A stretch of DNA of 64,000 bases, from sequence record ON528731; one strand, given 5' to 3'. This stretch comes from Shigella phage ESh21. Positions 1,957 to 56,654 of the stretch are shown piece by piece. The number at the start of each line of letters is the position of its first letter. Within the stretch, counting starts at the first letter, position 1. Under the pieces are notes generated by a model, which was given only the letters and a program-made list of their open reading frames with translations, was not told where the DNA came from and made no database searches. The position numbers and the translations under genes are program-made.

Positions 1957-2751
1957 ATGGGCATTGTAAAAATCATTAAAGGTGATATCTTTGAAGCCTT
2001 TGATAACCAGAAGTTTGATATCATTGGTCACGGATGCAACTGCATGAACTTGATGGGTGCAGGTATTGCAGCAACAATCTCAAAACGCTACCCAAAAGCT
2101 TATGAGACTGACGCTGAAGTTTATGAGACAGTTGGTGGTGAGAACCATAAACCTGTACATCTTATGCTTGGCAATATCTCTGTAGCACGTTTCAAGCAGG
2201 GTCGAATTGCTAACCTATACACTCAGGTTATCACTGGTAAAGATGCACGTTACAATGCCTTAGAAGCAGCTTTGCAGCGTCTTAACAACTACTGCAAAGT
2301 AAACCAGCTTAAGAAGGTTGGTCTTCCAATGATTTGTGCAGGGATTGGTGGTCTGGATATCTTTGCAGTTACTTCAATCATTAACCAGACAATGAAAGAT
2401 GTAGACGTTTACCTTTATGTCTATGAAGAAACAATGCACAGACGACTAACCAATAACATAGTTGGTTGGAACAACTACAGTGAACCTCAACACTTTGATG
2501 GTGTCGCAGTTGTGAAGGATAATCAAGTTACACTACGGGTAAAACGGAAGGGTAAGGTGCATAAAAGTAACCCTCCGGTTGAGAAGTACTCTCTGAGTAA
2601 CGCTCAAGTTACCCACCCGTTACATGACCACTGTTTGAGAGCAGTAACATTTGGTGACAATGCAAGTGTTTACCTTCTTGCACAAGACCATGAAGAAGCT
2701 GATAAGATTATCTCTGATAAACGTTTTAGCTTTGTTGAAGCACGTAACTAA
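1957..2751 (+). CDS. Macro domain protein (ADP-ribose binding / ADP-ribosyl hydrolase-like) with C-terminal extension
   Basis: GDIF...FDIIGHGCNCMNLMGAGIAATI and KVGLPMICAGIGGLD resemble macro-domain motifs (GDIT, VNAAN..GGGV..AI, PxIxTGxxGxP). Confidence 0.65.
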   Translation: MGIVKIIKGDIFEAFDNQKFDIIGHGCNCMNLMGAGIAATISKRYPKAYETDAEVYETVGGENHKPVHLMLGNISVARFKQGRIANLYTQVITGKDARYNALEAALQRLNNYCKVNQLKKVGLPMICAGIGGLDIFAVTSIINQTMKDVDVYLYVYEETMHRRLTNNIVGWNNYSEPQHFDGVAVVKDNQVTLRVKRKGKVHKSNPPVEKYSLSNAQVTHPLHDHCLRAVTFGDNASVYLLAQDHEEADKIISDKRFSFVEARN

Positions 2752-2811
2752 GTAACTTTGTAAAGTATTCACAATAGAGTAAGCCTTTCTTGTTCTTGCA
2801 AACACAAGGTA

Positions 2812-3008
2812 AGGAGGGCTTTTTCATTTCAAAATCGTGCAGATAAAGGTCTATAAAGAAATCTGTAGAGTGAAATCAAAGTCAACTCCAAAGGGAAAAT
2901 TCATTTTCAATTTGTGCAGGTGAACTCCAAAGAGCTTTTTCATTTCAAAATTGTGCAGAGAAAAATCAGGTCGGGCAAGAAAATTCATTTTCAATTTGTG
3001 CAGGTAGC
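2812..3008. repeat. Four tandem copies of a ~40-bp repeat (core TTTCATTTTCAAATTGTGCAG)
   Basis: Copies near 2822, 2901, 2936, 2981 alternating two variants. Confidence 0.7.
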
Positions 3009-3016
3009 CAGATATA

Positions 3017-3057
3017 GCCAGCCAGCCCCACCACCCCCTCTTACTCCCCTTCCTCCC
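3017..3057. repeat. C-rich polypyrimidine tract
   Basis: GCCAGCCAGCCCCACCACCCCCTCTTACTCCCCTTCCTCCC in otherwise AT-rich DNA. Confidence 0.6.
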
Positions 3058-3178
3058 AAAAGTCAAGAGAAAAATTTGTAGCGGATTAAAAAATAATTCT
3101 TGACTAGTTTTCTGTTTAGTGCTATGTGTACGCGCCCGTTTCATTCACAACATGCCAAAAATATTTTTAAAAATTTGC

Positions 3179-3207
3179 TTGACTCTAAAAAACCAGTCTT
3201 ATAGTAT
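3179..3207 (+). promoter_or_regulatory. Sigma70-like promoter for first early cassette
   Basis: TTGACT - 17 bp - TAGTAT. Confidence 0.55.
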
Positions 3208-3257
3208 TTGCATCAACGGGAAGCAATCCCAACAATCCTAAACTGGAGATTCAAAAA

Positions 3258-3464
3258 ATGTTATATCAACGGGAATTAATGATTGTCGATAATAACAAAA
3301 CTAAAAAACGTCGCTTCTTTATGTTAATCTGTGACGTGTGGCAAAGAATATCTGAAAAGGATTATGACAAGTATGTTGATACATCAATCAGGTCGGATTG
3401 TTATTTGACAAATCACACAAGACAGTTTACAAGACATACAGCAGTTTACTACTATGACGTTTAA
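3258..3464 (+). CDS. Hypothetical early protein
   Basis: Conserved leader CCTAAACTGGAGATTCAAAAA immediately upstream of ATG. Confidence 0.5.
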   Translation: MLYQRELMIVDNNKTKKRRFFMLICDVWQRISEKDYDKYVDTSIRSDCYLTNHTRQFTRHTAVYYYDV

Positions 3465-3476
3465 AAGGGCTTGACA

Positions 3477-3638
3477 ATGATTAAAGAAAGCAATGTAATA
3501 CGTTACAAGGATTTAGACGGCTACCCTAAAACGGGAAAAGTTTTCTATCTTTACAAGTCAGTGATGGGTAATGACTGCATAGCCCTAACAAATGGCGACA
3601 AAATAACCATGAAAGATTTTATAAAAATTATTGCATAA
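3477..3638 (+). CDS. Small hypothetical protein (53 aa)
   Basis: ATG 13 nt after upstream stop; below ORF-track cutoff. Confidence 0.3.
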   Translation: MIKESNVIRYKDLDGYPKTGKVFYLYKSVMGNDCIALTNGDKITMKDFIKIIA

Positions 3639-3643
3639 AGTGC

Positions 3644-3696
3644 TTCACATGGGGTTTAAAAGGTAGTATCTTAAGCCCCAGATAAAGAACTTTATC
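3644..3696 (+). promoter_or_regulatory. Promoter-embedded stem-loop cassette plus palindrome GATAAAGAACTTTATC
   Basis: TTCACA -35 in 5' arm, hairpin GGGGTTTA/TAAGCCCC, -10-like TATCTT, then 16-bp palindrome. Confidence 0.5.
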
Positions 3697-3726
3697 ACTA
3701 AACAATCCTAAACTGGAGAATCTAAA

Positions 3727-4110
3727 ATGAAAAAATACTATATGCCAAAGTTTATCAAGAAAGAAAACTTTCGCGATGCTCTGGAAAATTCCATGAATGA
3801 GCAATTCAAAGGCAAAATAATTGTTGTACACGCATACAATTTTAAGTATGATGTAAACGGTAACAAGATAAACCACTACACCGTTACAATGTTAGATGAT
3901 ACACTCTCAGGAGAAAAAGCCATCATCAATGCACTGGCTGCACGTGGTAAAACGTTAATCCGTTGTGATAAACGCCGCTATCAGGGTGGCACTTATGGTT
4001 ATGAGGATGCAATCTATCATCTTGCTAATATGGGTTACAATGTCGAAAAAGCTGGCGTATCTCAAATGATTGGTAGTGATGGGTATGTAACAGATTTCAA
4101 AATTAACTAA
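3727..4110 (+). CDS. Hypothetical early protein
   Basis: Conserved leader upstream. Confidence 0.55.
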   Translation: MKKYYMPKFIKKENFRDALENSMNEQFKGKIIVVHAYNFKYDVNGNKINHYTVTMLDDTLSGEKAIINALAARGKTLIRCDKRRYQGGTYGYEDAIYHLANMGYNVEKAGVSQMIGSDGYVTDFKIN

Positions 4111-4118
4111 TAAAGTGC

Positions 4119-4172
4119 TTTACATGGGGTTTATGAGTTGCTAGTATAAGCCCCAGATAAAGAATTTTATCA
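4119..4172 (+). promoter_or_regulatory. Promoter-embedded stem-loop cassette plus palindrome
   Basis: TTTACA - 17 bp - TAGTAT overlapping hairpin GGGGTTTAT/ATAAGCCCC; palindrome GATAAAGAATTTTATC. Confidence 0.55.
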
Positions 4173-4197
4173 CTAACCTAAACTGGAGATTCTAAAA

Positions 4198-4710
4198 ATG
4201 AAATCAGTCGAAAGCACCTTTGAAGTTCAAAAAGAAAAATTTACTATCATCTTTGAAGCAATGAATGTTTATGAGCCTTCCCATTGTGTGGATAACTGGC
4301 AATTCACTGATGAGCATAAAGGAGGAGTTACAATCAAAGTTAAAAACTCAGAACGTAACGGCTACAAATATGCAATTCCTATGCACTATGCGCTTTCACA
4401 GCTTGCCAGTGATTACGCAAAACAGGGAAGGGATAACCCATCATTAGCCGCTTACAAGAGCTTACAAGATGAACTAGAAAGGGATTTAGGGGCTAATAGC
4501 TACATTCTATACGCCTCAGTAGTTGACGCTGAAGGCAACACGGTTTTAAATAGTTTTTCCCTTGCGTATGGTTTTGATTGGTGCTATCTTGACGGGGAAG
4601 ATTTAGATTCACGCTTAAAAGAGGAAGTAAGCAATTCAGGTGCTGAAGAGGAAGTTTTAGAGCGCTTGGAAGATTTAAAAGATAGTGTGATGAATATCTT
4701 TAATATCTAA
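4198..4710 (+). CDS. Hypothetical early protein
   Basis: Conserved leader upstream. Confidence 0.55.
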   Translation: MKSVESTFEVQKEKFTIIFEAMNVYEPSHCVDNWQFTDEHKGGVTIKVKNSERNGYKYAIPMHYALSQLASDYAKQGRDNPSLAAYKSLQDELERDLGANSYILYASVVDAEGNTVLNSFSLAYGFDWCYLDGEDLDSRLKEEVSNSGAEEEVLERLEDLKDSVMNIFNI

Positions 4711-4716
4711 AAGTAC

Positions 4717-4769
4717 TTTACATGGGGGTTATCAAGTTGCTAAGATAGCCCCAGATAAAGAGCTTTACC
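4717..4769 (+). promoter_or_regulatory. Promoter-embedded stem-loop cassette plus imperfect palindrome
   Basis: TTTACA, hairpin, GATAAAGAGCTTTACC. Confidence 0.45.
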
Positions 4770-4795
4770 AACAATCCTAAACTGGAGAATCTAAA

Positions 4796-5086
4796 ATGAA
4801 AATTCCTGCTAATGTACGCTCAAAGTTAAGCCAATTACTACAAAACATTTCTTTTGTAGAATCTCATAGACGTTCACAGGATGTTATAGAGTGGTATCAT
4901 GGGAAGATTAACAAGAAAGAAGTTTTAATCTGTATTTGGAACTTTCAAAAAGAACATGGCAAGCCATTGCTTCAGGTTGACATTTATGATAATACTAGCA
5001 AATCAGCAGTAAAATCAAAAGCTGATATGATTGATTCATATGAAATTAGTCACACTGGTAGATTATCACACGTTGGGAAGGTTTAA
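4796..5086 (+). CDS. Hypothetical early protein
   Basis: Conserved leader upstream. Confidence 0.5.
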   Translation: MKIPANVRSKLSQLLQNISFVESHRRSQDVIEWYHGKINKKEVLICIWNFQKEHGKPLLQVDIYDNTSKSAVKSKADMIDSYEISHTGRLSHVGKV

Positions 5087-5087
5087 A

Positions 5088-5414
5088 ATGTTACTTTCTG
5101 GTATCGCAATTCTGATTTCAATTGTGGCGCTATATAAAGCTTATCAAGCCTCAGACTATGCAGATAAGGCTATCACAAGGAAAGTTAAAATAAACCTTGT
5201 AAGTAGCTTCTTAGAGCGTTTAAGCGTGGAACAATTACAACGTTTAGAGATGGGATTCAGGTTTAAGGCAGACACTTATCAAATCAGTGATGTTTTATCC
5301 GGTAACTTTGAGCTTGTTAATGATTACAATGCGTTACTAAATGCTATTCAAGCTACTGATTTAAAAGAATATTATCCGGTTATTGCACAAGAAATTAATA
5401 AACGCAAAAAATAG
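5088..5414 (+). CDS. Hypothetical membrane protein (N-terminal TM helix)
   Basis: Start moved to ATG 5088 with GGAAGG SD; the longer ORF from 5031 overlaps the upstream gene. Confidence 0.45.
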   Translation: MLLSGIAILISIVALYKAYQASDYADKAITRKVKINLVSSFLERLSVEQLQRLEMGFRFKADTYQISDVLSGNFELVNDYNALLNAIQATDLKEYYPVIAQEINKRKK

Positions 5415-5497
5415 CTTGCAAAGGCAAATCAAAACAAGTAAAGTACTCATCAACGGGGTAAGCAAGCCCCTAACAATCCTAAACTGGAGAATCTAAG

Positions 5498-5770
5498 ATG
5501 TATACAACTAATAATGGCAGAACTTTAAATGTAACTTTAAAGCACTATATAGACGGTGTATTAAACTTTGAAGACTTGCAAGCAGAGCAGCACTTGTTAG
5601 CTTGGCAAGTAGCAGGATTACAAAAAACCGCCACCGGATATGGGAAGAAAATCCCTACATCTTGGAAAGTTCGATACCTTGGAAAGTTACGCAGAATTTA
5701 TCAAGATGTTTACAGTAATAGTGGTGTAAGTTACATTATTGTTAGCGGTAAAAAGTTACATCTTGCTTAA
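5498..5770 (+). CDS. Hypothetical early protein
   Basis: TTGCAA-17-TAAAGT promoter and conserved leader upstream. Confidence 0.5.
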   Translation: MYTTNNGRTLNVTLKHYIDGVLNFEDLQAEQHLLAWQVAGLQKTATGYGKKIPTSWKVRYLGKLRRIYQDVYSNSGVSYIIVSGKKLHLA

Positions 5771-5778
5771 TAAAGTGC

Positions 5779-5831
5779 TTTACATGGGGTTTATAAGTCG
5801 ATAGTATAAGCCCCAGATAAAGAACTTTATC
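5779..5831 (+). promoter_or_regulatory. Promoter-embedded stem-loop cassette plus palindrome
   Basis: TTTACA - 17 bp - TAGTAT with hairpin; GATAAAGAACTTTATC. Confidence 0.55.
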
Positions 5832-5857
5832 ACTAACCTAAACTGGAGATTCAAAAA

Positions 5858-6259
5858 ATGGCTACGAACAAAGATATAGCAGTACTGAAAGCACGTTTGA
5901 CCGTTAACCGTATTAATGCTATCACATCAACCGCACCAGATGAGGTTTTACATAACATTATCGGTAAAATTCAGGGTGTAATTTTAGACGTTGAAAACAT
6001 CAGAGATTCACTTGCAAATGTTGCACAGGGTGTTACACTTGACGGCGCACAATATGAAATGGCTGATATGCTTTCAAAGTCAAAAGTTCTTAATAAAGAA
6101 TTAGACTTGAAAATGTTTCGATTTGCTGTTAAAGTGTGGCTATCTGTTGAGTTTGATGCTAACTTTGCAATTGCTGATTTCTTCGCAACGTGGTTACAAC
6201 GTAATTTAGAAAAGCAAGATTTTCAAGATATCTGCGATACAATTTACGCAGAACTTTAA
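5858..6259 (+). CDS. Hypothetical early protein
   Basis: Conserved leader upstream. Confidence 0.55.
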   Translation: MATNKDIAVLKARLTVNRINAITSTAPDEVLHNIIGKIQGVILDVENIRDSLANVAQGVTLDGAQYEMADMLSKSKVLNKELDLKMFRFAVKVWLSVEFDANFAIADFFATWLQRNLEKQDFQDICDTIYAEL

Positions 6260-6343
6260 AAAACGTTTGACACTGATTTTTAGATATATTAAAGTACTAT
6301 CAGACGGGCAAGCAAGCCCACTTCCTAAACTGGAGATTCAAAA

Positions 6344-6901
6344 ATGAAATGCTTTCACGGAACTACTCAAGAAAACTTTGTGAACCTGCTGAGTGGTGGA
6401 GAAAAACCTTCAGGGGCTTGGAATTGCTCAGACAGTGACGGGTGTTTTTATGTTTACCCTGTTAGTAAGTTCTATGATGTAGAGGATATGAACGCAGAAC
6501 AAATCACTGAAGAGGGTATTAGAAACACTCTGGATAGCGCAAGTATCACAGCGGCTTTCCAGATGAAATCACAAAAAATCGTTATCTTGGAACTCGATAT
6601 TCCAGAGGATGAATTACAAGATGACTGGAGCTGTGAGAATATGAAAGACGTTGCAAGCTTTACAGAACACTTTGATAAATCTTGGATTAAAAAGATTTAC
6701 ACAACTGATTTTAATGCTATGTATGCACCGTTTTTTGTACCTAACTTGAACAATAGAAATCTTGGCTATGTACCTGATGAATTACATAACATTGCTGTAA
6801 TGGTTCAACGTAGCGATGAGATGAATAATGTTTATTGTGACATTTTCGAAAATATGCAATCTAACATCACAGAAAGCAATATAAACGACTTTACAGCATA
6901 A
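6344..6901 (+). CDS. Hypothetical early protein
   Basis: TTGACA-17-TAAAGT promoter and conserved leader upstream. Confidence 0.55.
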   Translation: MKCFHGTTQENFVNLLSGGEKPSGAWNCSDSDGCFYVYPVSKFYDVEDMNAEQITEEGIRNTLDSASITAAFQMKSQKIVILELDIPEDELQDDWSCENMKDVASFTEHFDKSWIKKIYTTDFNAMYAPFFVPNLNNRNLGYVPDELHNIAVMVQRSDEMNNVYCDIFENMQSNITESNINDFTA

Positions 6902-6964
6902 ACCATAGAATCATACCAGATAACCGTAAAAGCCCCACACAGGGGCTTACAGGAGCTTTAAAAG

Positions 6965-7201
6965 ATGCTTACAACAATCTATCTCATGCTTGCCGTTTGC
7001 TCTGGTGCAAATAATTGTCATTATGGCATTATGGAATCCTTTGAAGGCACTAAACAAAATGCGGAAGAGGCTTGTAATATTGCTAGACAAGATTACCCCA
7101 AATCATCTAAAATGGGTTGCTACGTCTTACAAGGTGAAGACGAAAACACAGAATACTACGAAAATATTAATGAAGATGAATTTTTAGAGATTTACAAATA
7201 A
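6965..7201 (+). CDS. Small Cys-containing protein with N-terminal hydrophobic segment (possibly secreted)
   Basis: ORF in track; N-terminal hydrophobic stretch. Confidence 0.45.
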   Translation: MLTTIYLMLAVCSGANNCHYGIMESFEGTKQNAEEACNIARQDYPKSSKMGCYVLQGEDENTEYYENINEDEFLEIYK

Positions 7202-7206
7202 AGTAC

Positions 7207-7259
7207 TTTACATGGGGCTTAAAAGGTAGTATCTTAAGCCCCAGATAAAGAGCTTTACC
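7207..7259 (+). promoter_or_regulatory. Promoter-embedded stem-loop cassette plus imperfect palindrome
   Basis: TTTACA, hairpin GGGGCTTA/TAAGCCCC, GATAAAGAGCTTTACC. Confidence 0.45.
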
Positions 7260-7286
7260 AACAATCCTAAACTGGAGAATCTAAAA

Positions 7287-7628
7287 ATGGCATACGTAAC
7301 AGTAATTACTGACAAAGAAAATTCATCTTGGTCTACTCAGGTTAGCGATAAAATGTCCCCTATGCAGTGTCTCAAGTACTTTGAGCAGTGGAACCGTGGG
7401 GAAGATGTAAGCCCTTTTCAGGTGATGCAGGTTGTACACGTTGACAATGACGGCAACAAAACAACACTTAACACTGAATACTACGCAAGCCGTTTTGAAA
7501 CTAGAGCAGAGGCAATGAAACAATTACGTGAAAAGGGTTACAGTCACATAGCTGGATTAATCTGGAATGACTTACTAAAACAGCAGTGTATGACCTATGT
7601 CAAGCCTGAAAAAATCTTTATAAGCTAA
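7287..7628 (+). CDS. Hypothetical early protein
   Basis: Conserved leader upstream. Confidence 0.55.
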   Translation: MAYVTVITDKENSSWSTQVSDKMSPMQCLKYFEQWNRGEDVSPFQVMQVVHVDNDGNKTTLNTEYYASRFETRAEAMKQLREKGYSHIAGLIWNDLLKQQCMTYVKPEKIFIS

Positions 7629-7813
7629 TCAGTAACTTACAAAATACTTTGAAAAAACTGTTGACTTTACCCCTTGACAATAGTACATTTGTTCGAGGGG
7701 GTTTATCTAAAAGGATTCACTTGAAAGATTCTTTATAGATAAGCCTTGCAATTGCTTCAAAGATTCTCTATAGTTCTCTCAGTTGGTTAACTTCCTAAAC
7801 TGGAGATTCTAAA

Positions 7814-7933
7814 ATGATTATTTTGTATATGATGGTATTCTCAGTAGTGACCCCTTTCATACTCTTAATAGCCAGCGAAATAGATGATAAAATCTTTGAT
7901 AAAAAGCTTGCAAAGGCAAATCAAAACAAGTAA
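7814..7933 (+). CDS. Small hydrophobic peptide (39 aa)
   Basis: Conserved leader directly upstream of ATG; below ORF-track cutoff. Confidence 0.3.
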   Translation: MIILYMMVFSVVTPFILLIASEIDDKIFDKKLAKANQNK

Positions 7934-7997
7934 AGTATCTATCAAGGGGAAGGAATAAGGCTTCCCCCACTAAATAATCCTAAACTGGAGATTCAAA

Positions 7998-8525
7998 ATG
8001 AATAAGTTCACAGCAATCAATACTATCCGCTCAAAAGATGTAATGAAAAAACCTGTAAAAGACACTTTCGAATTTACTCTTAAAGATAAGTTGTTTGCAG
8101 TTATCACGAAAGGGGAAGATAAAAAATATTACATTCATCGCCCAAATCAGCAAATGCTAACCACTAACAACTTTATGAAGGCTGTGGCAATGATTCTGCC
8201 TGATTTTATGGCTATCGTTGCAGAGATTCACGAAATGGCTATAAAAGCCACTAAAAACGAGCTAAACCGCTATAAAATGGCTTATGAGCGTTCTATCAAG
8301 TCTCATAATCTTTTTATTGCAATCCACCATACGGGGATGTATGCTATGGGGACGGGTAACCAACAATACCCGCTCTATGATGTAGAAAATATCTATACAG
8401 GTGATTATCCAACAACTAAATTTAAGATTACGCTGGGGGAGGCATTAACTAGGGGGATTCGACTTTACGAACAATCTCTAAAAAACTTAGAAAATTCACT
8501 TGACGAAACGTTAGCGAATCTTTAA
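7998..8525 (+). CDS. Hypothetical early protein
   Basis: Conserved leader upstream. Confidence 0.55.
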   Translation: MNKFTAINTIRSKDVMKKPVKDTFEFTLKDKLFAVITKGEDKKYYIHRPNQQMLTTNNFMKAVAMILPDFMAIVAEIHEMAIKATKNELNRYKMAYERSIKSHNLFIAIHHTGMYAMGTGNQQYPLYDVENIYTGDYPTTKFKITLGEALTRGIRLYEQSLKNLENSLDETLANL

Positions 8526-8589
8526 AGTATCTATCAAGGGGAAGGAATCACTTCCCCACTAAAAATTCCTAAACTGGAGACTTAAAAGA

Positions 8590-8766
8590 TGAATTTTGAA
8601 CAGCGTATGATTGCAAAATTTGGTGCTAAACGTTGGGAAGAAATGAAAAAAGAGCATGAAGAAAAGAAAAATGAAGAAATGGTAGTCATCACTGGTACAG
8701 ACTTGTTAAATCATTCAGTTACTAATTACATCATTTCCGGCAATTCTTACAAGAAAGTTATTTGAT
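8590..8766 (+). CDS. Small hypothetical protein (58 aa)
   Basis: Conserved leader upstream; below ORF-track cutoff. Confidence 0.3.
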
Positions 8767-8837
8767 TAGTCTTGACAAGGGGCATAAAAGCCCCTACTTT
8801 AAGACTCTAAAACAATCCTAAACTGGAGATTCAAAAA

Positions 8838-9089
8838 ATGGCTACTATCCGCGCAACTGTAAACACTTTTGGTTTTAACGTGTTAGATGTTAAGTTTGAT
8901 ATGGTAGGTACTGGTGATGCTTTTGGAATGGTTGAAATGTGCTTAAAGGCAACTATTCAGGACTATAAACCAACTGAAAACTTCTGGAAAGAAGTCAAGC
9001 AGGAAGTCTTGAAAGATGGTGTGACGTCTTACTATTGGGGTGATTCTCTTATCACGCTTTACCATCAAAAATTTGGTTATAATGACTAA
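8838..9089 (+). CDS. Hypothetical early protein
   Basis: Conserved leader upstream. Confidence 0.5.
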   Translation: MATIRATVNTFGFNVLDVKFDMVGTGDAFGMVEMCLKATIQDYKPTENFWKEVKQEVLKDGVTSYYWGDSLITLYHQKFGYND

Positions 9090-9129
9090 CAAGACGCCGC
9101 AACGGGGCAAATAGCCCCAGACACCTTTC

Positions 9130-9153
9130 AAGCCCCTTAAATGGGGCTTTTTA
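9130..9153 (+). terminator. Rho-independent terminator ending the early plus-strand array
   Basis: AGCCCC-TTAAAT-GGGGCT followed by TTTTT. Confidence 0.7.
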
Positions 9154-9540
9154 ACGTCTATACAATCTCTTTCTAGACATTTAGAGTAATAACTCTATAG
9201 CTTACTCTATAACCTCTTATCAAATCAACTTAAATATAAGCCCATAACCCGAAAGGGAAGGGCAACCATTAAAACGCTCTATAACGCTCTATAACAGCCT
9301 TATCAACCTAACTTAAGCAATCATATTAACCCACTCTAAAAATCCCTTTATAGAGCTTCCTAGAGCCTTAAAAGAATCTTATAAGGGTGTAAGCTTTATC
9401 ATCTCGTTAGTCTCTTGTGAATATCTAAACAGGGCTGCAAAGTCACTTAAAAGTTACGTAAAAAGAGCTATAAAGTATCGTAAACACTAGCCCCCTTAAC
9501 ATTTCTTTAACAAAATCTTAACAATCCCTACATAGTTATG

Positions 9541-10026
9541 CTTGTTAGCAACTTGTTAGCACCTTGTTAAATCTCTGTTAAGACTACGTTACAACCTTGT
9601 TAGGCTCTTTGAAGTCCCTATATAAGCCCCTGTAAAGGGCTATAAAGAGCTATACAGGTAATTGGGCTATAGATACTAGTAAGAACCTTAGAAGAGGCTA
9701 CATAGAGCTATACAGGGCTTTTAAGAGGGCTGTTTAGAGAATCACTGAGAGGGATAGGGAACTATAAGAGAAGAGAAGTTGTGTTTGTAAACAATCACTG
9801 TGACCATGTTAATAAATGGTTAAACATGTTAAGAACTTAATAGACACTTGTTAATTATCTTAACAAAATAACTTTTAAATTTAACATGTTAGGGACTTGT
9901 TAGTAATTTGTTAAACCCTTGTAAGAACTGTTAAACTCTTGTTACATCCTTGTTAGAACTGTTAAGGGATTGTTAAGAACTATGGAGACTTGTTAGAGAC
10001 TTGTTAGAGTTGTAAAGAAATTGTTA
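9541..10026. repeat. Array of more than 20 YTTGTTAR repeats, the 9887-10026 run phased at about 10.5 bp
   Basis: TGTTA starts at 9887, 9898, 9909, 9920, 9929, 9940, 9951, 9960, 9971, 9991, 10002, 10011, 10022. Confidence 0.7.
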
Positions 10027-10279
10027 ATGATATTTTAAGATTTTGCAAAGGGGATGTTACAGGGCTGTTAAGGGCTACCAAGCAGATATACACCCTTTGT
10101 AGATATTTTTCAGATACTCCCAAGAACCTAAAAAGTGACCTACCTAGTCTATTTTATAAAAATTTTATAGAACTGAATAACTATCTATACACTATCTTCT
10201 ATAAAACAGGTAATAACAGGCTTATAAGATATCTTGTTAGTAACGTGTTAGACCTTGTAGGATAAGCCTTTACAGGGAA

Positions 10280-10560
10280 TACCTGTTTAGTGCTATATAA
10301 CAGTCTATATAGAGGCTTAGTAATCCCTAGTGAACCATCTATAGAGGGTATCATCCTTAACATAGAGATTAAGATGGATATAGGGGCTTCTAAGGGGCTA
10401 TGGAGAAGCTAGGAAGGTGATTGTATAGGTGTGGAAGAGGGCTTGTTAGAGAGCTTTATAGAGGGCTATTTAGAAGGTGCTATATAGTTTCACTAGATAG
10501 GGACTAAGAGGCTATATAGATACTATATAATACTATATAGAGAGTATGCTTAGATAGGTT
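10280..10560. repeat. Cluster of palindromic GCTATATAG-type repeats
   Basis: Copies near 10283, 10297, 10349, 10455, 10479, 10511, 10522, 10532; related GCTATAAAG copies at 9461-9720. Confidence 0.6.
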
Positions 10561-10663
10561 GTTGAAGAGGGTATTGATATTTTATCACATATCATGGTGA
10601 CCAAAGATGAACGGAGTGAATCCAAATTTTATAAGAACTATAAATTTCGTAAATTTTACTCAA

Positions 10664-10711
10664 TAAAAAGCCCCTATGAGATAGATTCTATCGAATCCAT
10701 ATTAAGGGGCT
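10664..10711 (-). terminator. Rho-independent terminator for the minus-strand operon
   Basis: Minus-strand hairpin AGCCCCT...AGGGGCT followed by T-run. Confidence 0.55.
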
Positions 10712-10720
10712 ATGTAGTTC

Positions 10721-11392
10721 TTAGCAAAGGTTCTCTATAACAGCCTGAATAGCTGGAATAGTCGTGTGAAAGAAGTGAGTGTCTCCGTTATGTGATTCTC
10801 GTATCTGTAACATGATAGCGTGACCCTTGATAGGGTAGCATTGAATGTGATAACGATTCCCGTTAAACACTGAACCAAACCCTGTACAGAAACTTTCCAA
10901 GTCAGCTTTAGAAAGAAACTCTTCTTTCCCTGTGATTTTTATACAGACACCTCTATTAACTCGTGAAGGGTTTATATCTTCTGCAAAGAGCATCTGTTGA
11001 CCACCTAAAGAGGTCATAGAGATTTCTTTACGGTTCTGCTGCTTAACATACATCTCAAGCTTCTTCAAAGTCTCTTCATAGAACGGATAATATTTATTCA
11101 CAAAGATACCTTCAAGTGGCTCTTTACCTGAGTCTTCTCGTTCCATCTTAAGTCGATTAACAAGTAATTCTAAAGACCACTTCTCACTTTCATCAAGATA
11201 TGTATTGATATCATCTAGACTCAGTACCAGATACTTTCTTTCAAGTTCAAACTTTTTCATCTCTATCAAATCCTTAAAACATTTCTTAGTAATTGCTTCC
11301 CATTCTTCGGAGTTCTTCCGCTTCCTCTTCAGATGGGGAACCATATCTGTTAAGTTCTTCCAACTCTTCTTCAGTAGGTGTCCCATAATCAC
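10721..11392 (-). CDS. Hypothetical protein
   Basis: ORF in track. Confidence 0.5.
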   Translation of the reverse strand: MIMGHLLKKSWKNLTDMVPHLKRKRKNSEEWEAITKKCFKDLIEMKKFELERKYLVLSLDDINTYLDESEKWSLELLVNRLKMEREDSGKEPLEGIFVNKYYPFYEETLKKLEMYVKQQNRKEISMTSLGGQQMLFAEDINPSRVNRGVCIKITGKEEFLSKADLESFCTGFGSVFNGNRYHIQCYPIKGHAIMLQIRESHNGDTHFFHTTIPAIQAVIENLC

Positions 11393-55999: not shown

Positions 56000-56266
56000 T
56001 CAATAAAATAAATCTGAAGCTTTTGAATTTACAGGATTCAAAGAACCTTCGTAATGTTCTTCATAACCCTCTTGGCAGATATTATACAGTTCTTTGAATC
56101 GGGCTTCATCAACTGGTTTAACATCTTTCTTAGCGCATAAGAAGAGATACCAATCGTACCCCAAATCTCTGCACCAAGCCTCTGAGACAAAAGCTATTGA
56201 TTTATCTTCGCTCTTGAAGATTGCTAAAGCTTCATGCTCTTTATTGCTCATTTTTGGTGTCTCCAA
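56000..56266 (-). CDS. Hypothetical protein
   Basis: ORF in track. Confidence 0.45.
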   Translation of the reverse strand: METPKMSNKEHEALAIFKSEDKSIAFVSEAWCRDLGYDWYLFLCAKKDVKPVDEARFKELYNICQEGYEEHYEGSLNPVNSKASDLFY

Positions 56267-56457
56267 AATTCAATGTCAATAAGTTCCTGTGCAATACTCT
56301 TCAGATTCCCTTTCAAGAAAACCTTTTCAGAGTTAGGTAGGCTCGCATTATCAATGAGTCTATTCATTCTGTCAAAAAGAGTTTTCTTCCGATTCTTGAT
56401 AGTATCTTTTGAAGCACCTTGCATCATGGCGAGATGGGTTCTTCCACGGTGGCTCAT
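56248..56457 (-). CDS. Hypothetical protein
   Basis: ORF in track. Confidence 0.35.
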   Translation of the reverse strand: MSHRGRTHLAMMQGASKDTIKNRKKTLFDRMNRLIDNASLPNSEKVFLKGNLKSIAQELIDIEFWRHQK

Positions 56458-56654
56458 AGACGTTCACCTTTAAGGTAGCCTGTCTTATCCTTGATAATCT
56501 TGCCCCCAGCGATAAAAATATCAACCTTGAAAAGATTTTCATTAGAAAGCTTGAGGTGCTTATGGCTACTGCAAATGATGATGCACATAGCCTCAATCTC
56601 ACTTTGAGAATATCCAGCACATTGCAGTTGAACTTCAATTTCTGAAATAGTCAT
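56454..56654 (-). CDS. Hypothetical protein
   Basis: ORF in track. Confidence 0.35.
   Translation of the reverse strand: MTISEIEVQLQCAGYSQSEIEAMCIIICSSHKHLKLSNENLFKVDIFIAGGKIIKDKTGYLKGERL

Follow-up and report, generated by a model that had tools for sequence, protein, structure and literature searches.

Promoter, hairpin and leader repeats in a variable gene array of Shigella phage ESh21 and their resemblance to promoter-early stem-loops

Known repeat systems and the ESh21 array

Promoter-early stem-loops (PeSLs) are known from the T4-type phages RB49/phi1, T4/PST and KVP40/nt-1 (Arbiol et al. 2010, PMC2839356; Comeau et al. 2014, PMC4122927). Start-associated sequences (SAS) occur in cluster K mycobacteriophages (Pope et al. 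2011, PMC3203893). In the Ounavirinae, the Mordin genome paper lists a 26-bp repeat, CCAACAATCCTAAACTGGAGAATCTA, upstream of 8 genes (PMC4611695), and the Felix O1 genome paper a 57-bp repeat, CTTTACATGGGGCTTAAAAG...GCCCCAGATAAAGAGC, and a 39-bp repeat, TTGACACTGG... (PMC3185647).

We analyzed a 64-kb stretch (the window; 64,000 nucleotides of record ON528731) of Shigella phage ESh21, a virulent, Felix O1-like member of the Ounavirinae of the Mooglevirus type. Nearly all 500-nt tiles of the window matched Shigella phage ESh22 at 99% identity or more. The main exception in the 64 kb was the 3000–9500 region, where identity fell to 51–97%, thereby marking the array located there as a hyperplastic region. 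The nearest relative changed at least eight times within the array and not once in the first 3.1 kb of the window. Positions 3179–9155 probably represent a hyperplastic early-gene array, whose 12 expression units comprise 15 small genes without known function, with an intrinsic terminator at either end (Table 1). The early timing is inferred; in RT-PCR data from Felix O1, the peak of ORFs 16, 20, 21 and 22 at 5 min mildly favors it, but the same data place array ORFs 17, 19 and 23 at 25 min, which counts against it.

The preliminary description had considered the ORFs mutually unrelated, and this was confirmed: 14 of the 15 had a PHROG of their own and ORF K had none, blastp among the 15 gave no matches to each other, and no Pfam matches were obtained for any of them. 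ORF K was present in only 19 phage records, with 98% amino acid identity in Felixounavirus GEC phages and 70% identity in a pair of Klebsiella and Serratia phages of ~147 kb; of this pair, the phage that was examined belongs to the Stephanstirmvirinae. Apart from the five class A units, in which the putative promoter lies within a hairpin, the array comprises five class B units (promoter followed by a 5′ UTR hairpin with a stem of only 4–7 bp), one other promoter-in-hairpin unit and one long complex intergenic region.

Table 1. Predicted features of the array and its borders (number after a hexamer, its first position; number between hexamers, spacer in nt)
Feature	Position	Strand	Details
Intrinsic terminator before the array, ending the upstream operon (rIIA ... 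macro-domain gene)	2781..2826	+	Hairpin -17.5 kcal/mol, then UUUUUCAUUU; homologous to Felix O1 t13
Class B cassette, first	3179..3257	+	Promoter TTGACT-17-TAGTAT 3179-3207, AT-rich upstream palindrome; 5′ UTR hairpin 3218-3230; leader 3237-3249
ORF A, 68 aa	3258-3464	+	phrog_5293, function unknown
Leaderless ORF, 53 aa	3477-3638	+	phrog_14219, function unknown
Class A cassette 1	3636..3726	+	Three-helix hairpin 3636-3694; TTCACA(3644)-17-TATCTT(3667); leader 3707-3719; -21.9 kcal/mol, z -2.8
ORF B, 127 aa	3727..4110	+	phrog_4495; missing from Moogle and mistaenkt
Class A cassette 2	4111..4197	+	Hairpin 4111-4169; TTTACA(4119)-17-TAGTAT(4142) with TG; leader 4177-4189; site without gene M, which relatives carry
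ORF C, 170 aa	4198..4710	+	phrog_4190
Class A cassette 3	4711..4795	+	Hairpin 4711-4765; TTTACA(4717)-18-TAAGAT(4741); leader 4776-4788
ORF D, 96 aa	4796-5086	+	phrog_4401
Leaderless ORF, translationally coupled to ORF D, 108 aa	5088-5414	+	phrog_4375
Class B cassette	5415..5497	+	TTGCAA(5416)-17-TAAAGT(5439); 5′ UTR hairpin GGGGU/GCCCC 5455-5470; leader 5478-5490
ORF E, 90 aa	5498..5770	+	phrog_3436
Class A cassette 4	5771..5857	+	Hairpin 5771-5829; TTTACA(5779)-17-TAGTAT(5802); leader 5837-5849; -24.9 kcal/mol, z -4.8
ORF F, 133 aa	5858..6259	+	phrog_4327
Class B cassette	6260..6343	+	TTGACA(6267)-17-TAAAGT(6290); hairpin 6306-6319; leader 6324-6336; nearest-relative change inside leader (6322-6339)
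ORF G, 185 aa	6344-6901	+	phrog_3303
Hairpin without promoter	6930-6948	+	Between ORF G and leaderless ORF 6965-7201
Leaderless ORF, 78 aa	6965-7201	+	phrog_4640; own AGGAG
Class A cassette 5	7202..7286	+	Hairpin 7202-7254, C-G pair replacing usual U·G; TTTACA(7207)-17-TATCTT(7230); leader 7266-7278
ORF H, 113 aa	7287..7628	+	phrog_4318
Long complex intergenic region	7629..7813	+	Promoter-like TTGACT 7661, TTGCAA(7746)-17-TATAGT(7769); repeated AAGATTCTnTATAG motifs; leader 7794-7806
ORF I, 39 aa	7814..7933	+	phrog_7482
Class B cassette	7908..7997	+	TTGCAA(7908)-17-TAAAGT(7931), -35 within ORF I 3′ end; hairpin 7946-7967; leader 7979-7991
ORF J, 175 aa	7998..8525	+	phrog_4725
Class B cassette	8500..8588	+	TTGACG(8500)-17-TAAAGT(8523); hairpin 8538-8557; leader 8568-8580
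ORF K, 58 aa	8589..8765	+	No PHROG; sporadic distribution
Distinct promoter-in-hairpin cassette	8766..8837	+	Hairpin 8768-8806 around TTGACA(8772)-17-TACTTT(8795); leader 8817-8829; -22.2 kcal/mol, z -5.0
ORF L, 83 aa, final gene of the array	8838..9089	+	phrog_4559
Intrinsic terminator, array end	9130..9155	+	AAGCCCCUUAAAUGGGGCUUUUU; annotated terminator in Moogle and Mordin; Felix O1 t23

As judged from their sequence, the array elements show all the features by which T4-type PeSLs are recognized, together with a leader resembling SAS, in support of the PeSL-type reading proposed in the preliminary description. PeSLs and the array elements share an AT-rich region upstream, a sigma-70-like promoter, and a Shine-Dalgarno sequence and ATG at the 3′ end; a G-run/C-run stem-loop lies over or between the -35 and -10 elements, with G-T pairs recorded for PeSLs too. 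Both are clustered in hyperplastic regions of ORFans, and in both, near-identical phages differ at the elements by insertions, deletions and replacements; in the array, such changes between very close relatives have junctions inside the elements. The -35 sequence TTTACA also fits the T4/PST consensus TTTACW. However, the phage lineage here is Ounavirinae, the hairpin spans the entire promoter (about -45 to +15, in three helices, from the preceding stop codon), and an invariant 13-nt leader is common to all units and apparently forms the main joint. For the PeSLs of RB49 and phi1, activity as promoter and terminator has been demonstrated, as have mini-circles. Because the phage is not T4-type, we regard the elements as functional analogues, and not as demonstrated homologues, of PeSLs. 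Of the three Ounavirinae repeats mentioned above, the 26-bp repeat corresponds to the leader, the 57-bp repeat to the class A cassette and the 39-bp repeat to the class B promoter.

The invariant leader

At least 12 small ORFs had been described as each preceded by a near-identical leader, and CCTAAACTGGAGA was indeed found in 12 exact copies, each before an ATG. All were on the + strand between positions 3237 and 8829 (starts in Table 1), compared to 0.15 copies expected by chance in the whole 64 kb. No further exact copies were detected elsewhere in the 64 kb, and with up to three mismatches the remainder of the window gave matches at chance level only. The distance from leader to start codon was 5–9 nt, with a spacing of 6–8 nt in the window, and every start codon was ATG. 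Among 108 copies from eight genomes, each position of the 13-mer was 97–100% conserved and most flanking positions roughly 30–85%; a spaced T at +14 was also invariant, giving the extended form CCTAAACTGGAGA-n-T. The GGAG within the leader reads as its Shine-Dalgarno sequence. The leader was common to all units irrespective of promoter class, was restricted to the array in the whole Mordin genome, and was found in multiple copies solely in 81–90 kb viral contigs. Its variants differed between genera and were largely uniform inside one genome; Felixounavirus genomes carried three variants side by side.

The leader resembles SAS in that both are asymmetric 13-nt repeats present in 11–19 copies, in one orientation and in the non-structural arm only, a few nucleotides upstream of mostly ATG starts. 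Both combine a Shine-Dalgarno core with invariant positions unable to pair with 16S rRNA, and both have an upstream inverted repeat beside some copies. Nevertheless, the two show no sequence similarity (GGGATAGGAGCCC for SAS and CCTAAACTGGAGA for the leader), the hosts and phage types are unlike, and the inverted repeats show compensatory changes here but none in the extended-SAS repeats.

The leader might mainly be bound by a trans-acting factor through which the array is co-regulated, either a translational regulator of the mRNA, as suspected for mycobacteriophage SAS, or an elongation-blocking, stoperator-like DNA repressor; a recombination role would be compatible with both. Such a site would agree with an asymmetric 13-nt sequence held in one orientation in 10–16 copies within one transcription unit only, with invariance well past the 4-nt Shine-Dalgarno core, and with variants that follow the genus, and the parallel with SAS was drawn by the Mordin authors as well. 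However, no candidate factor was found (T4 RegA and T4 RegB as queries gave no homologue in the window or the whole Mordin genome), the tight spacing to the ATG speaks against a purely DNA-level operator, and three variants coexist in Felixounavirus genomes. We consider this reading unlikely.

Much less probable still is that early messages are shut off by a T4 RegB-type endoribonuclease acting on the leader GGAG. T4 RegB cleaves the GGAG of early Shine-Dalgarno sequences (database annotation), and a "RegB-like endoribonuclease" is annotated in the same operon of relatives, but this gene is a homologue of T4 Vs.1 (E 1e-11 to 1e-13) and not of RegB. It had a weak Pfam SLT match only and a PHROG of unknown function, and its product matched no solved chain by sequence, hence not that of T4 RegB, if its structure was included. 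As noted above, the T4 RegB and RegA queries had no matches in the window or the whole Mordin genome.

Putative promoters within class A hairpins

Five cassettes had been described as having a promoter in a hairpin, and the 3′ hairpin arm GCCCCAGATAAAGA was found in exactly those five (3675, 4150, 4748, 5810 and 7238; 0.47 copies expected; -35 starts in Table 1). The short hairpin of the preliminary description was not upheld, since the stem is not 8 bp long: folding gave a structure of about 53–59 nt whose three coaxial helices hold roughly 21 base pairs, interrupted by small internal loops (-21.6 to -24.9 kcal/mol, z -2.7 to -4.8). This structure extends from the stop codon of the preceding gene (at or adjoining it) to about +15 of the embedded promoter. 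The promoter does overlap the hairpin, but TTTACA is part of the second helix, just upstream of the GGGG arm, and the -10 element, which had been placed in the 3′ arm, sits in the loop and at the junction with that arm.

In the class A alignment, 92.5% of the cells were paired, compared to 32–58% when the partner columns were slid, and the covariation score was 0.100, compared to 0.044 in shuffles (0 of 500 reached 0.100). Compensatory changes were observed at five pairs in the correct register (e.g. GC/UA, UA/AU, AU/UA/CG/GC), and in Erwinia phage Pistou GGGG/CCCC becomes GGUG/CACC. Since about 80 U·G cells were counted against 1 A·C cell, pairing is kept on the + strand alone; this suggests that the structure forms in read-through RNA. 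Among 47 distinct variants from 10 genomes, the only invariant positions of the loop were the T, A and T in TAnnnT, at a distance of exactly 17 nt from the -35, thereby indicating that the -10 element is under selection. The promoter pattern was TTTACA or TTGACA, 17 nt, TAnnnT, and the 25 nt upstream of the promoters were 68–84% A+T (61% in the genome).

Because the transcript of the embedded promoter would not contain the 5′ arms, the hairpin would form only in RNA read through from upstream; the same DNA would thus serve as the promoter of the next gene and as an RNA structure ending the previous message. This structure probably insulates the units from one another, and may do so as a processing site, a 3′ stabilizer or an attenuator. 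The class B hairpin, lying downstream of its promoter, would cap the 5′ end of the transcript. No U-tract was present at the class A hairpins, which were not called as terminators, and an Rfam search gave no family match; the RNA function of the hairpin is therefore a guess.

The early genes of phage T7 have RNase III processing hairpins in between. Like class A, these are long, interrupted, without a U-tract and intergenic in an early operon read by host RNA polymerase, but they enclose no promoter, and the likeness is one of shape only. It is conceivable, though we hold it only tentatively, that the class A hairpin is a host RNase III site at which read-through polycistronic RNA would be cut into single-gene messages with a protective stem end. 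With about 21 interrupted base pairs, the hairpin is as large as an RNase III substrate, and the coaxial helices with small internal loops, the sense-strand pairing, the missing U-tract and the intergenic position in a multi-promoter early operon would all suit such a site. Against it, the comparison draws on size and shape alone, Rfam offers no match, and, because class B stems are too short to be RNase III sites, two mechanisms would be needed for one array. It is very improbable that the class A palindromes are selfish miniature mobile elements (REP-, MITE- or Correia-like) carrying a promoter by chance. They are intergenic palindromic repeats of ~60 nt, several per genome, as such elements would be, but they occur in a single orientation, in the array only, always between stop codon and leader and at orthologous positions across genera, and target-site duplications were not seen.

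Cassette turnover among relatives

In relatives, whole modules of a gene with the next promoter and hairpin were either present or absent. Cassette mobility, as the preliminary description supposed, was observed when gene content was compared: at least 10 cassettes were variably present among eight genomes mapped in detail, and a few families occupied different slots. Family S was in slot 1 of one contig and about slot 11 of Mordin, families f14 and f15 had swapped positions between two contigs, and D and R were at other positions in Pistou. The 251 leader-preceded ORFs of 34 arrays fell into only 22 families. Gene order was strictly collinear among close relatives, where turnover is mostly gain, loss and replacement and not free permutation. 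The junction of an insertion or deletion lay inside a cassette in all eight interpretable cases, and at the leader in all five with unrelated flanking cassettes. A Felixounavirus phage shares a block of 89.9% identity that begins at the leader of gene J. Selection for architectures that work, and not the mechanism of recombination, could be part of the reason why junctions sit at the leader.

The repeats might instead be expression signals only, with a leader retained because ribosomes bind well to it, and a promoter and hairpin retained for expression. Turnover would then arise by ordinary homologous recombination between co-infecting relatives through flanking-gene homology, with occasional illegitimate events, and selection would cull arrangements without one intact cassette per gene. 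Much of the mosaicism is explained by ordinary homologous recombination within genes: in homologous genes compared with ESh22, about 30% of replacement-tract ends fell in cassettes, which make up about 18% of the length, and no clear enrichment was seen. The collinearity of close relatives also suits this explanation, as does a deletion of [cassette + L] in GEC_vB_BS, where two stop codons are fused through a GAyTAA microhomology instead of a repeat. However, in five insertions/deletions the flanking cassettes share the leader alone and the switch occurs there, and flanking-gene homology cannot account for families in different slots. Moreover, Shine-Dalgarno pairing involves just 4 bp (GGAG), yet 13–15 positions are invariant, and most others in the flanks vary freely. 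An explanation by expression signals alone is thus improbable in our estimate.

We favor, with a probability of about 0.7, a model in which the array consists of units of promoter, hairpin and leader whose repeats act as recombination joints. Each unit would have a host sigma-70 type promoter, a G+C-rich hairpin and an invariant translation-initiation leader. Otherwise unrelated cassettes have no sequences in common besides the leader and the class A repeats, which could therefore serve as joints for homologous recombination; the leader would drive the exchange and not simply persist through it. Modules of the form [ATG-gene-stop-promoter-hairpin-leader] would be deleted, inserted and exchanged, each bringing a correctly spaced ribosome-binding site. 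Ounavirinae repeats that the Mordin and Felix O1 papers (PMC4611695, PMC3185647) merely listed or likened to SAS would accordingly be promoters, RNA structure and recombination joints, a reading absent from both papers.

Leader and genes of the array

The 13-mer leader CCTAAACTGGAGA, which contains GGAG, was found in 12 exact copies in the window against 0.15 expected; all are on the + strand, confined to 3237-8829, and each is followed by an ATG, which bears out the preliminary description of a near-identical leader in front of at least 12 small ORFs. When up to three mismatches were allowed, only chance-level extra matches appeared elsewhere in the window. Eight Mooglevirus and Suspvirus genomes together contained 108 copies, 103 of them exact, with ATG as the start codon in all and a leader-to-ATG distance of 5-9 nt. 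Across these copies every position of the 13-mer, and likewise a T two bases beyond it, is conserved at 97-100%, and most other flanking positions at roughly 30-85%. The copies lie in the array only (12 in the window, 10-16 in relatives), including 16 of 16 in the complete genome of phage Mordin, and in IMG/VR a multi-copy leader was found only in contigs of 81-90 kb. CCTAAACTGGAGA is also present in Felix O1 and in the Felixounavirus phage GEC_vB_BS; CCTAAATTGGAGA occurs in several copies in GEC_vB_BS and once in Felix O1, CCTTAAACTAGGAGA occurs in both, and the leader variant of Erwinia phage Pistou is CCTTAWAAAGGAA-TCAAAA. By these comparisons the leader is thus an old feature that drifts between genera and is nearly uniform within Mooglevirus and Suspvirus genomes.

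Inspection showed that the 3' tail of 16S rRNA pairs with the GGAG of the leader alone. A longer pairing was therefore rejected, and Shine-Dalgarno pairing does not explain the invariance of CCTAAACT. Folding also gave a small CCU/GGA hairpin inside the leader, but its stability is too low for any interpretation. The invariance of CCTAAACT could possibly come from a trans-acting factor, as suspected for the start-associated sequence (SAS) of cluster K mycobacteriophages, or from homogenisation by recombination. T4 RegB cuts GGAG, and control of the leader by RegB or RegA was rejected: neither T4 protein had a match in the window, nor in Mordin over its whole genome. The "RegB-like endoribonuclease" gene upstream in relatives is a homologue of T4 Vs.1 (E 1e-11 to 1e-13). 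The label "similar to T4 endoribonuclease RegB", carried by this weakly SLT/lysozyme-like Vs.1 homologue in Pistou (L011, 5276-5788) and two other Ounavirinae records (L006, 3235-3783; L005, 801-1394), seems to stem from an old description, "protein in vs-regB intergenic region".

By megablast, 3000-9200 matched 240 phage records, all of them Felix O1-like myoviruses of Escherichia, Salmonella, Shigella and Citrobacter, and at least 80% of this query was covered by only one of the 240. In its structural region, the window shares about 91% identity with Sf17 and other Mooglevirus phages. The 15 array ORFs gave no Pfam match and no matches to one another; 14 of them have a PHROG of their own, all of unknown function, and ORF K has none, in agreement with the earlier claim that the ORFs are unrelated to each other. 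In GEC_vB_BS (L014, 2545-3167), gp019 and gp020, the homologues of ORF D and of a 108-aa leaderless ORF, are labelled "tail sheath protein" and "tail tube protein"; judged by size (about 100 aa) and location, these labels are almost certainly mis-annotations. In phage KMM4 (L003), C, G and K are truncated, with 21, 132 and 31 aa after the leader, the cause being either in-place decay of pseudogenes or frameshifts from sequencing. The Pistou array contains a gene (L011, 13457-13690) annotated as a homologue of the T4-type superinfection immunity protein Imm, which points to gene uptake by the array from groups of unrelated phages. For Bas63, another Felixounavirus phage, the accessible text of the PhageMaP paper describes most genes as dispensable.

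Predicted promoters and hairpins of the cassettes

In annotated relatives, the array is preceded by rIIA, rIIB, a Vs.1-like gene, a polynucleotide kinase gene, spanin genes, a macro-domain gene and a short non-coding stretch, and is followed by a terminator, a further non-coding stretch of about 1.6 kb and, on the opposite strand, convergent genes. Upstream of the leader, the window has three architectures: class A, with the promoter inside a three-helix hairpin; class B, with the promoter followed by a 5' UTR hairpin; and, beside these, the two units listed separately in the table.

Features of the array and its borders
Feature	Position	Strand	-35, spacer, -10
Intrinsic terminators at both array ends	2781-2826, 9130-9155	+	
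Class A cassettes	3636-3726, 4111-4197, 4711-4795, 5771-5857, 7202-7286	+	TTTACA, 17-18 nt, TAnnnT
Class B cassettes	3179, 5416, 6267, 7908, 8500	+	TTGACA or TTGCAA, 17 nt, TAAAGT
Unit with a different hairpin enclosing the promoter	8766-8837	+	TTGACA, 17 nt, TACTTT
Long complex unit before ORF I	7629-7813	+	

A sigma-70-like promoter (-35, about 17 nt, -10) was predicted in 12 of 12 units, and the 25 nt upstream of -35 have an A+T content of 68-84% versus 61% for the genome. In six units, namely the five of class A and 8766-8837, a stable G-run/C-run stem-loop overlaps the promoter; the five units of class B have a short G+C hairpin as their stem-loop, downstream of the promoter and a few nt beyond the expected transcription start. 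GCCCCAGATAAAGA is present five times in the window, at exactly the five cassettes for which a promoter within a hairpin had been described. In an alignment of 47 distinct class A variants, taken from ten genomes, the loop varies apart from three invariant positions, the T, A and T within TAnnnT, at exactly 17 nt downstream of -35. These are the key positions of the sigma-70 -10 element, and they are not constrained by pairing. Orthologous class B cassettes keep the hexamers and differ in the spacers. In Felix O1, RT-PCR placed the array ORFs 16, 20, 21 and 22 at 5 min and ORFs 17, 19 and 23 at 25 min, a timing that weakly supports the array promoters.

Besides its promoter-like sites, two or three in number, the complex unit 7629-7813 has two copies of AAGATTCTnTATAG, which resembles repeats in the gene-free region of about 1.6 kb immediately 3' of the array (9160-10720); judging by this resemblance, the motif may be a shared protein-binding site. 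That region is dense with short degenerate direct and inverted repeats, with a periodicity of about 11 nt and the motifs CTTGTTAGnnA, GCTATAnAG and CTCTATAAC, and looks like a packaging region or the iteron stretch of a replication origin. The sequence records of both KMM4 and mistaenkt start within this region, and repeat_regions are annotated there in mistaenkt. At the other end, 2815-3060, which separates the upstream terminator from the first promoter of the array, holds a direct repeat of 27-33 nt in four copies (TTTTTCATTTCAAAATyGTGCAG / AAATTCATTTTCAATTTGTGCAGGT) and, after them, the C-rich tract CCAGCCAGCCCCACCACCCCCTCTTACTCCCCTTCCTCCC, unusual for an AT-rich genome. A minus-strand ORF of 97 aa (2851-3144), annotated in some relatives, overlaps these repeats.

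The hairpin around the class A promoter was confirmed, but not its proposed size of 8 bp: folding gave three helices within 53-59 nt, with -21.6 to -24.9 kcal/mol and z scores of -2.7 to -4.8. Helix 1 (UAAAGU/ACUUUA) takes in the preceding gene's stop codon or lies directly next to it, helix 2 (CUUUA/UAAAG) includes the -35 element, and helix 3 is U-GGGGUUUAU/AUAAGCCCC-A. In a MAFFT alignment, 92.5% of the cells were paired versus 32-58% with slid partners, and the covariation score was 0.100 versus 0.044 in shuffles, with 0 of 500 shuffles reaching 0.100. This alignment mis-registers one stem variant, so that pairs were counted by anchors and the tool count is the conservative figure; the anchor count gave essentially complete pairing across nine pairs of the class A inner helix. 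Compensatory changes were GC/UA (43/4), UA/AU (30/17), AU/UA (29/17) and AU/UA/CG/GC, with GC/UA (31/11) in the outer helix, and Pistou, a Kolesnikvirus, has the same cassette with GGGG/CCCC replaced by GGUG/CACC. The class B hairpins, e.g., 5455-5470 (GGGGU-AAGCAA-GCCCC), have the same GGGGU/GCCCC core as the class A inner helix, with a U·G wobble at the fifth pair, and by this likeness the two classes may have a common origin.

Among the non-Watson-Crick cells, U·G was found about 80 times and A·C once, indicating that pairing is maintained on the + strand only. Such pairing fits a sense RNA; the + strand of the DNA is a less likely site of folding, and a cruciform does not fit. A transcript from the embedded promoter would start at about the A of CCCCAGAU and would lack the 5' arms of the hairpin, so that only read-through RNA could fold it. 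As canonical intrinsic terminators, the cassette hairpins were rejected for want of a U-tract: they have 1-2 U in the 8 nt after the stem, none was called as an intrinsic terminator, and only the two terminators bracketing the array qualify. No Rfam family was matched in 2500-11000 at E up to 1. The double-stranded part of class A comprises 6+5+10 bp, i.e., about 21 interrupted base pairs, and by analogy only it would be long enough for RNase III, whose substrates have about 20 bp or more; the class B hairpin falls short of this.

Gene turnover and movement between phages

Almost every 500-nt tile of the 64 kb is at least 99% identical between the window and the complete ESh22 genome. Identity falls to 51-97% across 3000-9500, which includes the array; the only other departures are part of the tRNA region (21-23.5 kb, 69-96%), a milder drop within 16-17.5 kb and a single tile, 56001-56500 (92.8%). 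Inside the array the nearest relative switches repeatedly among ESh22, SFPB, KMM4 and unknown donors, and two of these switches were pinned to a leader, at 3258-3272 and at 6322-6339 (within the leader 6324-6336). The ends of tracts diverged from ESh22 fall in cassettes in about 30% of cases versus about 18% expected. We did not find this enrichment convincing and rejected it; the modest excess indicates that ordinary recombination within homologous genes also contributes.

Gene content in related phages was informative. The leader-preceded genes of the eight genomes form a collinear backbone, A B M C D E F R G N/S/T H I O J P K L, in which whole cassettes are present or absent, as the preliminary description would predict; compared with ESh22, the window is without M, N and O. 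At class A sites that are "empty" in this sense, the distance from stop codon to next leader is about 61-76 nt, and it is shorter at class B ones; the preserved distance indicates that exactly one cassette remains. Each empty site was set against both the left and the right cassette of a relative in which the site is filled, and the indel junction lay inside a cassette in all eight interpretable cases. In five (R, O, P, K and N), the left and right cassettes are of different classes, the leader is the sole sequence they share, and the switch occurs at the leader; in the three class A/class A cases, it occurs at AAAATG, in the 3' arm or near -35. With junctions at the leader or cassette, promoter and hairpin stay with the upstream gene, and the moving module would be [ATG-gene-stop-promoter-hairpin-leader]. 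One counter-example was found: GEC_vB_BS is without [cassette + L], and the junction is stop-to-stop at a short microhomology.

The 251 leader-preceded ORFs of 34 arrays and fragments fall into only 22 families, some of which change position. Family S is the first array gene in one 89-kb contig and about the eleventh in Mordin, f14 and f15 have exchanged places between two contigs, and D and R are in other positions in Pistou. A block of 89.9% identity with GEC_vB_BS begins at the leader of J. ORF K (58 aa, 8589-8765) was found in only 19 phage records, which cross the borders of genus and subfamily: some Felixounavirus phages have it at 98% identity, the neighbouring genes being about 60% identical between those genera, and two phages of about 147 kb, Klebsiella phage 05F01 (Stephanstirmvirinae) and Serratia phage ChuuTotoro, have it at 70%. 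Of these two, 05F01 was examined, and no Ounavirinae-type leader was found at its ORF K homologue.

Resemblance to known elements and possible meaning

Promoter-early stem-loops (PeSLs) were defined for RB49/phi1, T4/PST and KVP40/nt-1 (PMC2839356, PMC4122927). The array elements share with them the sigma-70-like promoter, the AT-rich tract upstream of -35, the stable G-run/C-run stem-loop between or over the promoter boxes (here in six units), a 3' end that carries the Shine-Dalgarno sequence and the start codon (here GGAG in the leader and ATG 5-9 nt after the 13-mer), the location in hyperplastic regions beside ORFans that differ between close relatives, and the insertion/deletion junctions inside elements (8/8 here), with the one counter-example and without enriched replacement tracts. 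At the sequence level every defining PeSL feature is thus present, including the hyperplastic context and the junctions at elements. PeSLs are further characterised by measured promoter and terminator/attenuator activity and by mini-circles that arise when neighbouring elements recombine. The genomes differ, T4-type there (Tevenvirinae and relatives) and Ounavirinae, Mooglevirus-like, here, and the lineage not being T4-type, we file the elements as PeSL-like and not as PeSL homologues. The initial proposal of PeSL-like cassettes therefore stands, for the features and for gene turnover at the elements, within the reach of sequence analysis and genome comparison.

Like SAS, the leader is a 13-bp asymmetric repeat present in multiple copies, in one orientation and in the non-structural arm only, a few nt before start codons, with a Shine-Dalgarno core and invariant bases unpaired with 16S rRNA. 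SAS is GGGATAGGAGCCC and belongs to actinobacteriophages of cluster K, and the array leader is unlike it in sequence and phage group; the leader fits the formal definition of SAS without sequence similarity, as an analogue only. With the stoperators of cluster A mycobacteriophages, to which the phage repressor binds and so halts elongation, it shares formal features only (13 bp, asymmetric, one orientation), and the fixed leader-ATG distance argues for a role in translation. MITE- or REP-like mobile elements were rejected on the grounds of orientation, confinement to the array and absent target duplications. The Mordin genome announcement likened a 26-bp repeat before 8 genes to SAS (PMC4611695), and the Felix O1 paper gave the class A and class B repeats as direct repeats, not among its predicted promoters (PMC3185647). 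In the searchable literature we found no paper linking Felix O1-like phages to PeSLs. The new details are the enclosure of the promoter by a long hairpin whose pairing is kept on one strand only, the universal leader as a joint, and a module that carries the promoter of the next gene; the finding is moderately interesting and not surprising.

We consider it unlikely, with a chance of roughly one in eight, that the leader is the dedicated joint of a cassette-capture system and that class A is bifunctional, acting as a promoter in DNA and as an RNase III-type signal in read-through RNA. In such a system, the leader would be kept and homogenised in each genome so that [gene + downstream promoter + hairpin] could leave as a circle and re-insert at any other leader, and a phage factor recognising the leader might assist. 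If this is true, virulent phages would possess a "socket" system akin to integrons.

Salmonella typing, biocontrol and therapy all make wide use of Felix O1-like phages. The array provides natural landing pads for engineering, each with a predicted promoter, insulator and ribosome-binding site, and since the window and ESh22 are at least 99% identical outside it, recent events are directly readable and testable. It marks the fastest turnover of candidates for host takeover and anti-defence. The PeSL idea is carried beyond T4-type phages, with standardised cassettes that would both express accessory early genes and allow their swapping, and the link between PeSLs and the unexplained SAS of mycobacteriophages hints that early-gene "sockets" may be a general phage design.
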